A DNA stretch of 64,000 bases from Escherichia coli (GTDB lineage Bacteria; Pseudomonadota; Gammaproteobacteria; Enterobacterales; Enterobacteriaceae), in NCBI RefSeq assembly GCF_017348835.2, contig NZ_CP071375.1, one strand, 5' to 3'. Shown piece by piece: positions 29,017 through 53,147 of the stretch (position 1 is its first letter; every line of letters begins with the position of its first letter). The position numbers were made by a program, and so were the translations under genes. Below the pieces are notes generated by a model, which was given only the letters and a program-made list of their open reading frames with translations, was not told the DNA's origin and did not search any database.

Positions 29017-30684
29017 ATGATCCACGCCTTTATTAAAAAAGGGTGTTTTCAGGATTCGGTCAGTTTAATGATTATTTCACGAAAACTCAGCGAATCAGAA
29101 AATGTTGATGATGTTTCCGTAATGATGGGTACGCCCGCCAATAAAGCGTTATTAGATACCACAGGTTTCTGGCATGACGATTTTAATAACGCCACGCCGA
29201 ACGATATTTGCGTGGCAATTCGTAGCGAAGCGGCGGATGCGGGGATCGCGCAGGCGATTATGCAGCAGCTTGAAGAGGCGCTAAAACAACTGGCGCAGGG
29301 GTCAGGCAGCAGCCAGTCCTTGACGCAGGTGCGTCGCTGGGACAGTGCCTGTCAGAAATTACCCGATGCCAATCTGGCGCTGATTTCAGTGGCTGGCGAG
29401 TATGCGGCGGAGCTGGCGAATCAGGCGCTGGATCGCAACCTCAACGTGATGATGTTCTCCGATAACGTCACGCTGGAAGATGAAATCCAACTTAAAACCC
29501 GCGCGCGGGAAAAAGGCTTGCTGGTGATGGGGCCGGACTGCGGTACGTCGATGATTGCCGGCACGCCGCTGGCTTTTGCTAACGTGATGCCGGAAGGCAA
29601 CATTGGCGTCATTGGCGCTTCCGGTACCGGGATTCAGGAGCTGTGCTCGCAGATTGCGCTGGCAGGGGAGGGAATTACTCACGCGATTGGCCTTGGCGGC
29701 CGCGACCTCAGCCGTGAAGTGGGCGGCATCAGTGCGCTAACAGCGCTGGAAATGCTCAGTGCAGACGAGAAAAGCGAAGTGCTGGCATTTGTTTCAAAAC
29801 CACCTGCCGAAGCTGTGCGTCTGAAAATTGTTAATGCCATGAAAGCAACCGGCAAACCGACGGTGGCGCTGTTTTTAGGTTATACCCCGGCGGTGGCCCG
29901 CGACGAGAATGTCTGGTTTGCCTCCTCGCTGGATGAGGCCGCACGCCTGGCTTGCCTGCTTTCACGCGTTACGGCGCGACGTAACGCGATAACGCCTGCC
30001 AGCAGCGGATTTATTTGCGGTTTGTATACCGGCGGTACGCTGGCTGCCGAAGCGGCGGGATTACTTGCCGGACACCTTGGCGTGGAAGCCGATGATGCCC
30101 ATCATCACGGCATGATGCTGGACGCCGATGGCCACCAGATTATTGACCTTGGCGATGATTTCTACACCGTCGGGCGTCCCCATCCGATGATCGACCCAAC
30201 CTTACGCAACCAGTTAATTGCCGATCTCGGCGCTAAACCGCAAGTGCGCGTATTGCTGCTTGATGTCGTGATTGGCTTCGGTGCGACCGCCGATCCTGCC
30301 GCCTCGCTGGTAAGCGCCTGGCAAAAAGCATGTGCCGCGCGTTCAGACAATCAACCACTGTATGCCATTGCCACGGTGACAGGCACTGAACGTGACCCGC
30401 AATGCCGCTCGCAGCAAATCGCCACGCTGGAAGATGCGGGGATCGCGGTAGTGAGTTCGCTGCCGGAAGCCACCTTGCTGGCGGCGGCACTGATTCGTCC
30501 GCTTTCGCCTGCCACTCAGCAACACACACCGTCATTACTGGAAAACGTCGCCGTGATTAACATCGGATTACGCAGCTTTGCGCTGGAGCTACAAAGCGCC
30601 AGCAAACCGGTTGTGCATTACCAATGGTCGCCAGTCGCCGGCGGCAATAAAAAACTGGCTCGTTTATTAGAACGTTTGCAATAA
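29017..30684 (+). CDS. fdrA: FdrA (acyl-CoA synthetase/CoA-binding-like) protein
   Basis: 555 aa; synteny with ylbE/ylbF/ybcF. Confidence 0.85.
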   Translation: MIHAFIKKGCFQDSVSLMIISRKLSESENVDDVSVMMGTPANKALLDTTGFWHDDFNNATPNDICVAIRSEAADAGIAQAIMQQLEEALKQLAQGSGSSQSLTQVRRWDSACQKLPDANLALISVAGEYAAELANQALDRNLNVMMFSDNVTLEDEIQLKTRAREKGLLVMGPDCGTSMIAGTPLAFANVMPEGNIGVIGASGTGIQELCSQIALAGEGITHAIGLGGRDLSREVGGISALTALEMLSADEKSEVLAFVSKPPAEAVRLKIVNAMKATGKPTVALFLGYTPAVARDENVWFASSLDEAARLACLLSRVTARRNAITPASSGFICGLYTGGTLAAEAAGLLAGHLGVEADDAHHHGMMLDADGHQIIDLGDDFYTVGRPHPMIDPTLRNQLIADLGAKPQVRVLLLDVVIGFGATADPAASLVSAWQKACAARSDNQPLYAIATVTGTERDPQCRSQQIATLEDAGIAVVSSLPEATLLAAALIRPLSPATQQHTPSLLENVAVINIGLRSFALELQSASKPVVHYQWSPVAGGNKKLARLLERLQ

Positions 30685-47010: not shown

Positions 47011-47087
47011 GCGCCCTTAGCTCAGTTGGATAGAGCAACGACCTTCTAAGTCGTGGGCCGCAGGTTCGAATCCTGCAGGGCGCGCCA
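47011..47087 (+). tRNA. argU: tRNA-Arg (anticodon UCU)
   Basis: 77 nt gcgcccttagctcagttggatagagcaacgaccttctaagtcgtgggccgcaggttcgaatcctgcagggcgcgcca; cloverleaf with anticodon loop cuUCUaa. Confidence 0.95.
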
Positions 47088-47102: not shown

Positions 47103-48265
47103 TTACGCCTTCTTTATATCCTCCATAATTCCACAGTGGGACATATTTGGGACATGATCACCAAAAATGTCGTCTATTTTCCTTGCATGCTCTGTCAAAT
47201 GATTAGGCGCAAGGTGAGCATACCTACGAACCATTTCTATGGACTCCCATCCGCCCATTTCCTGAAGCACAGATAATGGGACGCCTGACTGGATCAGCCA
47301 GCTTGCCCAGGTGTGTCTGAGGTCATGGAAACGGAAATCTTCAATTCCTGCACGACGACAAGCTGATAGCCATGATGTCTTGCTGTCGATGCGCATCTTC
47401 CTGACCGCAGGCGTTGATGTTCCATCTGCTCGCTTAGCCGCCTTGGTATGTACAAACACCCATTTGTGATGCTTGCCTATTTGATCACGCAACACTTTAC
47501 AGGCGGTATCGTTCAGCGCCACACCAATGGCGCGGTTTGATTTGCTCTCTTCTGGATTCACCCAGGCAACTCGTCGCTGCATGTCGATTTGTTGCCATTC
47601 CAGATTTATGATGTTCGACTTTCTCAGACCAGTTGCCAGCGCAAACTTGACGACAGATTTCAGTGGTTCGGGGCACTCATCAATAAGGCGTTTTGCTTCC
47701 TCCTTTTCCAGCCATCTGACTCGCTTGTTTCTGACCGCTGGTATCTTGATGACAGGCGCTTTTTCCAGCCACTTCCAGTCGCGTTCTGCAGCACGGAGAA
47801 TGGCCTTTATCATGGCAAGATGCTTTGCCTTTGTCTGAGTTGATACTGGCTTTGGTTCATAAACAGGCGGTTCTTTACCTTTCCTGATGGCGGCCTGAAC
47901 TTTCTGTTTCCATATTTCTTTCGTCTTTCTGTTATGCATTCTGCTTACAGCAGAGTAAATCTTTGCCTCCGAGATATCTTTAAGCCTTATACCCTCAAAA
48001 TGTTCAAGCCAGAACTCAATCCGGCTTTTATCTGAATCGAGAGATTTTTATCAGCTTTTTCCTCAAGCCATCTTAGGCAGGCCTCTTCAAAAGTGACATC
48101 AGGTAAATCCCCTAGCTTTTCTACTCGCCAGAGTTCTGCTTTTCGCTTGTCGTGCAACTCCTGAGCTTGCCGCTTGTCCTTTGTGCCAAGAGATTCCTTA
48201 ATTCGTTTCCCGCCCGGGAGCGAATACGAGGCATACCATATTTCATTTCTGCGGAAGAGTGACAT
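47103..48265 (-). pseudogene. intD: tyrosine integrase, reading frame interrupted by a frameshift
   Basis: N-terminal 74 codons ([19 protein letters not shown]..., ORF 47987-48265) and C-terminal catalytic part (ORF 47103-47939, HxxR ... Y) are in different frames; the break is at a 5-nt homopolymer at 48045-48049. Confidence 0.8.
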
Positions 48266-51066: not shown

Positions 51067-51536
51067 TTTGCTGCTCCTCATCATATCGACCCTGCAAGGC
51101 CGATTAGTTTCTCCACAAAACAGAGAAGAACACCTGTGGTGGCCGCCGCCCGGATGGATTGGGTTATGAGCCCGTCGTCCGGTGATGCTCTTCTCTGTTT
51201 TGTAAAAAGGACGGTACCAGCCGGAAGCAAGGGTACAAGCTGGTACCGCCAGGACTACACACAGCATAAAGTTGTGGTGCCGGGTGCCCTCCCGGTGCCT
51301 GGCGAAGGTTGCACACCAGGCGGGTGGGTATCCACAGAAGGTCGACTGTCAGCCTCAACCTTAACCCGCGTGCGCTGAGCCGCATTCACCACAACGCTAA
51401 GGATTCTCTCTGGTTGAAAATACTTAGCTGTTATGTGCCTGCTTTTAGCCACATCAGGCGAGGTGGACCTGGTTATTCCCCAACAACAAGGATTCGGTTA
51501 ATCTGGATATCCCCAACAACAATAAGAGTATTCAAT

Positions 51537-52052
51537 GTGATCGCTGAATTAACGGCAGCAATGACGGCTATTCGTGAAACAGCCCAGATTGCAAAACTAA
51601 TGAACGAGGCAAAAACTCAAGCTGAAGTAAATGCGGCTATTGGTGAGCTGAACTCAAAGCTTGCGTCTATTCAGCGCGAATGCGTGTCTCTCGTTGAACT
51701 GGTGGGCTCTTATCAAGAAATAAATGCTTCTCTCAAAGCTAAAATTGCAGAATTCGAAAACTTTGAGGCTCAGACGGAAGGCTATATCCTTAACCAACTT
51801 GAGTCGGGTACTTTTGTATACTCGAAGGAGGTAATCGTGAACGGTGGCAGCATAACCATGCATCTTTGCCCAAAATGTTTTGGACAAAAGATAGTATCGA
51901 TACTTCAACCATTCCCGGTTAGCGAAGATGAGCTTTTTCATAAAAGCAGGTGCCTCCACTGTGAAAATAAGTTTCTGATGAATAAAAATCCGGATTACGT
52001 ATCGCCTCCATCCATTGAGGAGTTGTCCAGAAAACTTAACGGCAATCTGTAG
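51537..52052 (+). CDS. orphan protein: N-terminal heptad-rich helix plus C-terminal CxxC...CxxC zinc ribbon; convergent with pL
   Basis: ~171 aa from GTG 51537 (or 163 aa from ATG 51561); protein-like composition; own terminator at 52092-52115. Confidence 0.55.
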   Translation: MIAELTAAMTAIRETAQIAKLMNEAKTQAEVNAAIGELNSKLASIQRECVSLVELVGSYQEINASLKAKIAEFENFEAQTEGYILNQLESGTFVYSKEVIVNGGSITMHLCPKCFGQKIVSILQPFPVSEDELFHKSRCLHCENKFLMNKNPDYVSPPSIEELSRKLNGNL

Positions 52053-52091
52053 ATTACTACTGTTGTGGATATCCAGATTGTTAAAGAGCTA

Positions 52092-52115
52092 AGCGTCCTG
52101 TAGGGCGCTTTTTTG
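52092..52115 (+). terminator. intrinsic terminator of the orphan plus-strand gene
   Basis: agcgtcc tgta gggcgct followed by TTTTTT. Confidence 0.6.
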
Positions 52116-52280
52116 TTGCTAACGAATCATCCTGGACTTCATATGCCCCAGGCGGCTACTTCGTGGGCGTCCTGCCTGTTCGTTTTTGACATTTACTGAC
52201 TGCTTACGACACATGCACCGTGTTGCAACCAGATTTTGTTGTAATCCTGTAGTTGGTCTGGAACAAAAGATAAAATTAAA

Positions 52281-52317
52281 TTGCGAGATATGCAAGCGAT
52301 ATTTGCGAGGTATGCAA
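52281..52317. promoter_or_regulatory. OL-type operator pair with likely leftward promoter pL
   Basis: Two 15-bp sites ttgcgagatatgcaa and ttgcgaggtatgcaa, 22 bp apart, just past the 3' end of cI; same motif as sites between cI and cro. Confidence 0.55.
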
Positions 52318-52371
52318 ATTTATAGGTAGTAAAAAGCCACCTTTCGGTGGCCGATGGATGGGATATTGAGG

Positions 52372-53064
52372 TTAATTATGTCTCTTAAGGGTTTGCGACT
52401 GACTGATTAAGACCTTTCCAAAGACCATGAATCGGTGTTCGTTTTCGCTAGTAATTCCCCATTCACGGTAAATCTGGTTATCAGAAATCACCAGCAGTTT
52501 GTCAGGAATCATTTGAAGTCTTTTAACGTATATTTTGTCATCAAAACCAAAGACATATATACCATCACCATCAAACTGATTGATGCTGACATCAACGAAG
52601 ATGAGATCTCCTGGCTCAATGGTTGGACACATACTGTCCCCACGAACGTTGATAACTTTGATGTGATTGGCTGGTCGTCCGCCGAACATTGATACAGCAT
52701 TATCAGTTCTGTATTCGATGGCATGAATCACATCAATGACATCACCGCCCTGGATAAGGCCATTTCCCGCACTGGCACTGATATCCAGCATTTCAATACG
52801 GAACACATCCTTCACCTGCGCAACATCCTCATTATTACTGTTTTTATATACAGTATTACTTTTGTGGGCAGAGGTAAAGAGATCAGCAATATCAACACCT
52901 AAGCTCTTGGCAATATTACTCAGTGTTTGTTCGGTAAATTGTTTTTGCTTACCCGTTTCTAAGCGCGAGATGTTCGCCGCATCTACTCCTATTGCTTCAG
53001 CGAGATCGGCGATTTTCATGTTCTTCGCTTGGCGAAGTTGTCTGACTCGGTTTCCTATGTTCAT
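52372..53064 (-). CDS. cI: CI-type prophage repressor (XRE HTH plus S24 LexA-like peptidase domain)
   Basis: 230 aa; N-terminal HTH (MKIADLAEAIGVDAANISRLETGK); C-terminal GDSM ... K peptidase motif. Confidence 0.85.
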   Translation of the reverse strand: MNIGNRVRQLRQAKNMKIADLAEAIGVDAANISRLETGKQKQFTEQTLSNIAKSLGVDIADLFTSAHKSNTVYKNSNNEDVAQVKDVFRIEMLDISASAGNGLIQGGDVIDVIHAIEYRTDNAVSMFGGRPANHIKVINVRGDSMCPTIEPGDLIFVDVSINQFDGDGIYVFGFDDKIYVKRLQMIPDKLLVISDNQIYREWGITSENEHRFMVFGKVLISQSQTLKRHN

Positions 53065-53084: not shown

Positions 53085-53147
53085 TTGCGTGATAAGCAAA
53101 TCAACTTGCGCAAAATAATTGCGTGAAATAACATGCATAACGCGCAA
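53085..53147. promoter_or_regulatory. OR operator region with divergent pRM/pR
   Basis: ttgcgtgataagcaa (53085-53099), ttgcgcaa core, atgcataacgcgcaa (53133-53147) between divergent cI and cro. Confidence 0.55.

Follow-up and report, generated by a model that had tools for sequence, protein, structure and literature searches.

The window, a 64,000-nucleotide stretch of the Escherichia coli contig NZ_CP071375.1, contains a lambdoid E. coli prophage integrated at argU. The tRNA at the integration site occupies positions 47011–47084 and is annotated as tRNA-Arg in a strain that is 99.3% identical. The left arm lies on the minus strand throughout and consists, in the RefSeq annotation, of int, a short HTH remnant, yfdT, a phage protein, yfdR, a YfdQ-family gene, yfdP, and a frameshifted hypothetical CDS, followed by a plus-strand gene of the Rip1 family, the S24/XRE repressor, cro (53162, plus strand), and the rightward operon. 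The first-pass annotation had placed every other gene between int and cI on the minus strand, which is true of the annotated genes from intD to the S24/XRE repressor. The repressor has its own terminator at 52352–52335, found by the terminator scan. The features at the locus are listed below.

51421–51544, minus strand: predicted sas-like antisense RNA, from a full-length alignment (A5) to the 127-nt P22 sas RNA
51474–51510, plus strand: predicted sieB-type promoter, by homology, from an alignment (A3) to the P22 'sieB promoter' (29690–29720) and 'sieB RNA start site' (29727)
51500–51525, no strand assigned: left arm of an inverted repeat (repeat search), overlapping the predicted −10 element and RNA start
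51537 (GTG) to 52050–52052 (TAG), plus strand: Rip1-family gene, 171 aa (ORF and translation)
52054–52079, no strand assigned: right arm of the inverted repeat, starting 2 nt past the stop codon and abutting the boxA-like element
52078–52090, minus strand: rrn-type boxA-like element AGCUCUUUAACAA, read from the sequence, on the pL transcript, immediately ahead of its antisense passage through the gene
52091–52116, plus strand: terminator-like hairpin AAGCGTCC-TGTA-GGGCGCTT followed by TTTTTG (terminator scan)
52281–52317, no strand assigned: two exact operator copies (OL), TTGCGAGATATGCAA and TTGCGAGGTATGCAA (pattern search), overlapping the putative pL
52372–53064, minus strand: cI-type repressor (HTH and S24 peptidase; ORF list), RefSeq 'XRE family transcriptional regulator'

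Elsewhere in the left arm, the integrase frame is broken into two minus-strand ORFs (47103–47939 and 47987–48265) with a span of 1163 nt; an intact intD of 1164 nt is present in the 99.3% identical strain. Since the integrase frame is split, the prophage in the window may be unable to excise. The frameshifted hypothetical CDS corresponds to a stretch of 51–56% GC at about 51081–51392, in which a full-length but sub-threshold match to the Rfam family STnc100, a prophage sRNA, falls on the minus strand (51201–51425; 36.5 bits against a gathering score of 47, E = 5.5e-5). A 2026 preprint relates the STnc100 family to PasD. A hairpin with 18-nt arms is formed by positions 51115–51132 and 51186–51203.

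The gene product and the Rip1 family

The RefSeq annotation uses the same start codon and labels the product (WP_000559922.1) a hypothetical protein. More than 120 homologues with 41–99% identity are found across Enterobacterales, and the dN/dS of the ORF against seven of its homologues is 0.14–0.28. In an alignment of 44 homologues, 11 columns are invariant, including C111, C114, C139, and C142, while A7, A11, E14, T15, L18, and K20 vary little or not at all, placing the N-terminal helix among the best-kept parts of the clade. Because of these homologues, the invariant columns, and the dN/dS values, the lone plus-strand ORF is considered a genuine gene. The whole 1.35-kb locus is present in at least 371 of 5,426 complete E. 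coli genomes. The gene has been described as richer in AT than its neighbors and therefore moron-like; with a GC content of 42–43% it is indeed AT-richer than its left neighbor (51–56%) but not than cI and cro (39–44%), and the moron signature is weak.

The motif CPKC-x24-CLHC is present in the 171-aa product and, as the first-pass annotation stated, follows a long N-terminal helix, the helical N-terminal half comprising approximately 75 residues in the translation and the AlphaFold2 model. The model (pLDDT 91) contains helices at residues 2–24 and 28–79, followed by a beta domain. The predicted architecture comprises an N-terminal amphipathic helix, a long helix extending to about residue 79, and a beta domain with a C4 zinc ribbon, the ribbon being predicted from the four invariant cysteines.

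The gene was originally regarded as an orphan of no recognizable family, a view that is replaced by the profile and structure searches. The protein matches phrog_1244 at E = 9e-60, a family whose function is given as unknown in PHROGs. In an hmmsearch of the PDB sequences with the 44-homologue profile, the sole strong match is chain L of 9oox, which is Rip1 (E = 1.1e-19 over positions 5–156), and the same protein is found from the single sequence by phmmer (E = 2.7e-7). The BLASTP alignment between the window protein and HK446 Rip1 spans 148 aa, 27% of them identical, and matches up both CxxC pairs: C111, C114, C139, and C142 stand opposite the CAQC and CHRC motifs. When the AlphaFold2 model is compared with the PDB by Foldseek, only 9oox_L and 9oox_M fall below E = 0.001 (4e-7 and 7e-7, both with a probability of 1.00), with TM-scores on the target of 0.53–0.72, and the next-best match has E = 0.17. 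Profile search and structure prediction, both proposed as checks in the first-pass annotation, point to 9oox Rip1. On the basis of the sequence and the predicted fold, the gene product is a divergent member of the Rip1 family. An exhaustive HMM search extends the superfamily to 2,635 cluster representatives (50% identity) at E ≤ 1e-3, among them Rip1 and HkaP of HK620, and nearly all of the listed ones are 145–180 aa in length. Scans of the protein against Pfam and NCBIfam return coiled-coil noise alone. In PADLOC-DB v2 (2023), a library older than Rip1, no model is matched, and the sole match is a coiled-coil one to a type I restriction enzyme (E = 0.063).

The entry 9oox is entitled 'Escherichia phage HK446 Rip1 in complex with the Enterobacteria phage T6 small terminase' and was released on 2026-02-04. 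Rip1 stands for 'ring interacting pore 1', the name given by the depositors to gp37 of phage HK446, a protein of 164 aa. The hydropathy of Rip1 over 19 residues peaks at 1.28 at residues 11–29, a Gly/Ala-rich stretch that has no counterpart in the window protein. The N-terminal 19 residues of the latter, which include E4, R13, and E14, have a hydropathy of about 0.78, and none of its segments reaches a transmembrane-like value.

The cysteine motif and the helix had also invited a comparison with the zinc-ribbon coiled-coil factors of RNA polymerase of the DksA/TraR type, and the gross outline, a long helix and then a four-Cys motif, does fit; the likeness ends there, and such a function is very improbable. 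The Pfam family PF01258 (zf-dskA_traR) is not matched even at E ≤ 10, and no DksA, TraR, or Gre structure occurs among the 50 listed Foldseek matches in the PDB. The model has a single long helix and a beta-rich domain around the zinc ribbon rather than an antiparallel coiled-coil hairpin. The cysteine spacing in DksA is x17, differing from the x24 of the window protein, and a specific homologue of another kind, Rip1, exists.

Members of the family are found in other genomic settings as well. In the Mu-like Pseudomonas phages DMS3, D3112, JBD30, JBD69, and MP42, the Rip1-family homologue lies on the opposite strand, with a 'DNA binding protein' gene on one side and the large terminase on the other. 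The homologue in DMS3 (L006) is located at 2456–2983, and the neighboring 'DNA binding protein' gene occupies the position expected for the small terminase. In Edwardsiella (L013 and L014, 4001–6279), three plus-strand genes (168, 228, and 175 aa), the first of them the homologue, make up an antisense island that lies downstream of an N_peptide gene; the last two genes have no Pfam match.

The sieB-type leader and the predicted antisense RNA

The window gene, HK446 rip1, HK620/HK630 hkaP, and lambda/P22 sieB are all carried within the leftward early (pL) operon in antisense orientation, and in Citrobacter-type prophages the homologues always adjoin the repressor on the opposite strand. Upstream of the gene, a block of approximately 110 nt is common to lambda/P22 sieB, HK620/HK630 hkaP, HK446 rip1, and all homologues of the window gene, with encoded proteins that are unrelated to the window protein (SieB) or 27–28% identical. 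The alignments A3 and A5 contain 44 and 51 invariant columns, respectively. The analogues of the promoter elements in the window are TATTCC (−35, 51474–51479) and TAATCT (−10, 51499–51504), with a predicted RNA start near 51510. The direct repeats TCCCCAACAACAA are situated at 51477–51489 and 51510–51522, and the second of them opens the predicted 5'UTR of about 27 nt, followed by the SD sequence AAGAG and the GTG start codon. The predicted hexamers are weak, and no promoter is called upstream of the gene by a consensus promoter scan.

On the opposite strand, the predicted sas-like RNA is complementary to the start codon, SD sequence, 5'UTR, and promoter of the window gene. It contains two UGUUGGGG repeats and a conserved 3' element, CCACC..GCCUG..GUGG..CAGGC. 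In the sas-like block, RNAalifold identifies one covarying pair (AU/UA, in six versus five sequences). The 3' element of the block (GCCTG..CCAC..CAGGC..GTGG) could be a hairpin or a pseudoknot, and Edwardsiella has CCGC/GCGG at the second pairing. Rfam has no match to the leader in six loci.

In P22, the sas RNA is a 127-nt species that was sequenced from infected, not uninfected, cells (PMC13397905), and sas is an antisense RNA that switches the translation of sieB (PMC12197685). The proposal that the window gene is expressed in the lysogen and silenced by antisense transcription from pL is supported by the homology of its leader to the P22/lambda sieB promoter and RNA start and, on the opposite strand, to sas, and therefore has a homologous and experimentally studied precedent. 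An internal start of the Esc type is not apparent, as neither Met9 nor Met22 is conserved among the 44 homologues; hence, the translational switch of P22 may not apply in full. The shared leader shows that lambda/P22 sieB, HK620 hkaP, HK446 rip1, and the window gene are, as judged from aligned sequences, interchangeable cargo behind one promoter and sas control module. Membership of the SieB protein family itself was considered and rejected: lambda SieB and the window protein share only a segment of 39 residues with 28% identity (E = 0.004 in a single BLASTP comparison), with no full-length alignment.

The pL leader and the inverted repeat

The paired operators noted earlier to the right of the gene are two exact copies of TTGCGAGRTATGCAA at 52281–52295 and 52303–52317, and degenerate copies are located at 53085–53099 and 53133–53147, between cI and cro. 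The position of pL is deduced from these operators, with the minus-strand hexamers read as TTGCAT (−35, 52295–52290) and TATCTT (−10, 52272–52267); the consensus promoter scan does not call pL.

The gene had been credited with an intrinsic terminator of its own at 52092–52115. A hairpin with a T-run does exist, but it occupies 52091–52110, with the T-run extending to about 52116. Across 16 distinct leaders, the hairpin is invariant or paired in 98% of cells. Viewed on the minus strand, it is situated immediately 5' of the boxA-like element. This element, AGCUCUUUAACAA, differs by one base from UGCUCUUUAACAA, which we take to be the rrn boxA consensus, and is kept as (A/U/C)GCUCUUUAACAA in nearly all distinct leaders, behind several different operator/promoter regions. 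In a group of homologues with 92–94% identity (L055–L073), another hairpin, GCCGGATGCTTGCTTGTGTCCGGC, follows the stop codon with no T-run; the gene has no canonical intrinsic terminator in this allele group, and the other strand retains a perfect rrn boxA, UGCUCUUUAACAA.

A second hairpin in the pL leader (52131–52152) has compensatory changes in two of its five pairs and beats all 500 shuffles. An outer ACGAA/UUCGU stem in the same leader was dropped, the changes G3 to A and G61 to A not being compensatory. Taken together, the features of the pL leader fit antitermination-competent transcription crossing the gene. PHROG scans for an N-like antiterminator in the minus-strand ORFs at 51081–51452 and 52119–52295 give nothing useful.

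The inverted repeat brackets the ORF exactly, its arms of 26 nt being 85% complementary, with a core (CTGGATATCC / GGATATCCAG) that is itself nearly palindromic. The repeat is kept in homologues with 53–68% protein identity; HK446, HK620, and the Edwardsiella locus L013 lack it, and in L014 and L084 it is no longer than expected by chance. Most of the left arm precedes the predicted start of the sense RNA, so that only the minus-strand (pL) RNA could form the full stem. Conservation of the arms is at the level of sequence, and nearly every change breaks a pair instead of restoring one, so that covariation neither supports nor excludes an RNA helix. An inversion switch was rejected: when the flipped junction was built, no place covering at least 80% of it was found in the 5,426 complete E. 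coli genomes.

Proposed function and comparison with known systems

The account of the Rip1 mechanism used here draws on the PDB title, on the meeting report PMC12908700, and on one citing sentence. In the meeting report, Rip1 is described as a prophage-encoded protein that stops incoming phage, with 12 Rip1 subunits capping an 11-subunit terminase in a pore-based defence (PMC12908700), and a preprint counts Rip1 among the small-terminase sensors. The homology to HK446 Rip1 in sequence and fold, along with the genomic context, supports the defence or exclusion role for which the gene had been nominated. The window gene is probably, at a probability of about 0.7, a Rip1-type prophage defence gene, that is, a sensor of incoming terminase rings which would kill or disable a cell under infection and which would be shut down by a sas-like RNA when pL fires.

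The scheme below is inferred throughout, from the expression pattern of the window gene and the sensing of terminase through oligomerisation and pore formation to the phenotype. In the lysogen, low-level transcription would proceed from the weak sieB-type promoter, starting near 51510, and translation would begin at the GTG codon behind the short SD sequence. When a foreign phage infects the cell and produces its ring-shaped small terminase, the C-terminal beta/zinc-ribbon domain would bind the ring, and the ring would template the oligomer; the solved complex has 12 Rip1 subunits on an 11-mer terminase. Once assembled, the helical N-terminal portions would damage the membrane, thereby aborting the infection. 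When the resident pL fires, boxA-modified leftward transcription would cross the gene antisense, and the sas-like RNA made from pL, complementary to the translation start, would shut off further synthesis.

The Gly/Ala-rich N-terminus of Rip1 is missing from the window protein, which starts approximately 14 residues later with an amphipathic, charged helix; hence, pore formation may not carry over and is the least secure step of the mechanism. The main rival draws on the same difference: a Rip1 homologue acting as a direct packaging inhibitor would simply cap the ring and block DNA packaging by the invader, with neither a pore nor abortive cell death. The solved complex, in which Rip1 caps the small-terminase ring, is in keeping with such a role, as are the loss of the Gly/Ala-rich hydrophobic segment from the clade and the lack of any transmembrane-like hydropathy in the protein. 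Against this, the depositors chose the name 'ring interacting pore', and the meeting report speaks of a pore-based mechanism (PMC12908700). The N-terminal helix is also among the best-conserved parts of the clade, which argues for a role beyond that of a spacer, and pure ring capping is considered unlikely.

A further departure from Rip1 is suggested by the wiring of the cassette, which differs from that of all other genes in the sieB slot in lying directly behind an rrn-type boxA and being bracketed by the conserved 26-nt inverted repeat. The clade, in which the hydrophobic N-terminus of Rip1 is missing, may have kept ring recognition and changed its output and control, either neutralizing the terminases of invaders or sensing another ring-shaped phage protein with no pore formed, while the long-range inverted-repeat stem in the pL transcript could loop out the entire antisense segment and process it into a silencing RNA. 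This combination is speculative, and we would bet against it.

The gene might instead serve the life cycle of its own phage, timing or checking its own terminase or lysis. The position of the homologues in DMS3, D3112, JBD30, and MP42, beside a putative small-terminase gene and the large terminase, hints at a link to the phage's own packaging module. However, Rip1 is reported to block incoming phages (PMC12908700), and the terminase in its solved structure comes from T6, an unrelated phage. In lambdoid prophages, moreover, the slot and expression module in which the gene is found are those of sieB, an exclusion gene, and the packaging genes are far away; a role in the resident phage's own cycle is distinctly improbable.

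With the gene regarded as a Rip1-type defence gene, a very common E. coli prophage carries, under the RefSeq label 'hypothetical protein', a gene for which the Rip1 link provides a testable function, the sensing of small-terminase rings. The new element is an uncharacterised, divergent branch that is tied to the newly described Rip1 family and sits in the sieB slot. This slot is a defined place in which further prophage defence genes can be sought. With approximately 2,600 cluster representatives at 50% identity, the differences in specificity between clades could be large.

Among known systems, the DksA/TraR factors resemble the window protein in being small and in combining a helical region with four cysteines, and differ from it in cysteine spacing and topology. 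TerI and the other terminase-sensing defences Avs1–3 and Upx share with the proposed function, according to a preprint, the use of the phage packaging machinery as a trigger; however, what Avs1–3 and Upx sense is the large terminase, and these proteins are either large and multidomain or unrelated.

The SieB/Esc/sas module of P22 and lambda likewise has a plus-strand gene inside the leftward early operon, with a homologous promoter, RNA start, and antisense sas region, and the logic is shared: an exclusion gene expressed from the prophage is countered by an antisense RNA from pL. However, the proteins are unrelated, and the family of the window gene has no conserved internal start equivalent to that of esc.

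Within the Rip1 family, HkaP of HK620, HK629, and HK630 forms a third branch, with 28% identity to the window protein and E = 2.4e-10 to 9oox. In a 2001 annotation, the HK620 hkaP product is called a 'putative superinfection exclusion protein'; it is, as far as the records show, uncharacterised. The antisense slot and leader of hkaP are the same as those of the window gene, but hkaP lies between N/hkaQ and cIII. HK446 Rip1 is of the same length class as the window protein (164 versus 171 aa), has a long helix followed by a beta/zinc-ribbon domain with aligned CxxC pairs, and is encoded antisense in the pL operon behind a sieB/sas-type leader. In contrast, the two proteins are only 27% identical, and the window protein lacks the first ~14 residues of Rip1 and its Gly/Ala-rich hydrophobic stretch. 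The HK446 gene is situated between N and ral/cIII with no inverted repeat flanking its ORF, whereas the window gene follows pL and the boxA-like element directly, with no N gene between, and is flanked by the inverted repeat.
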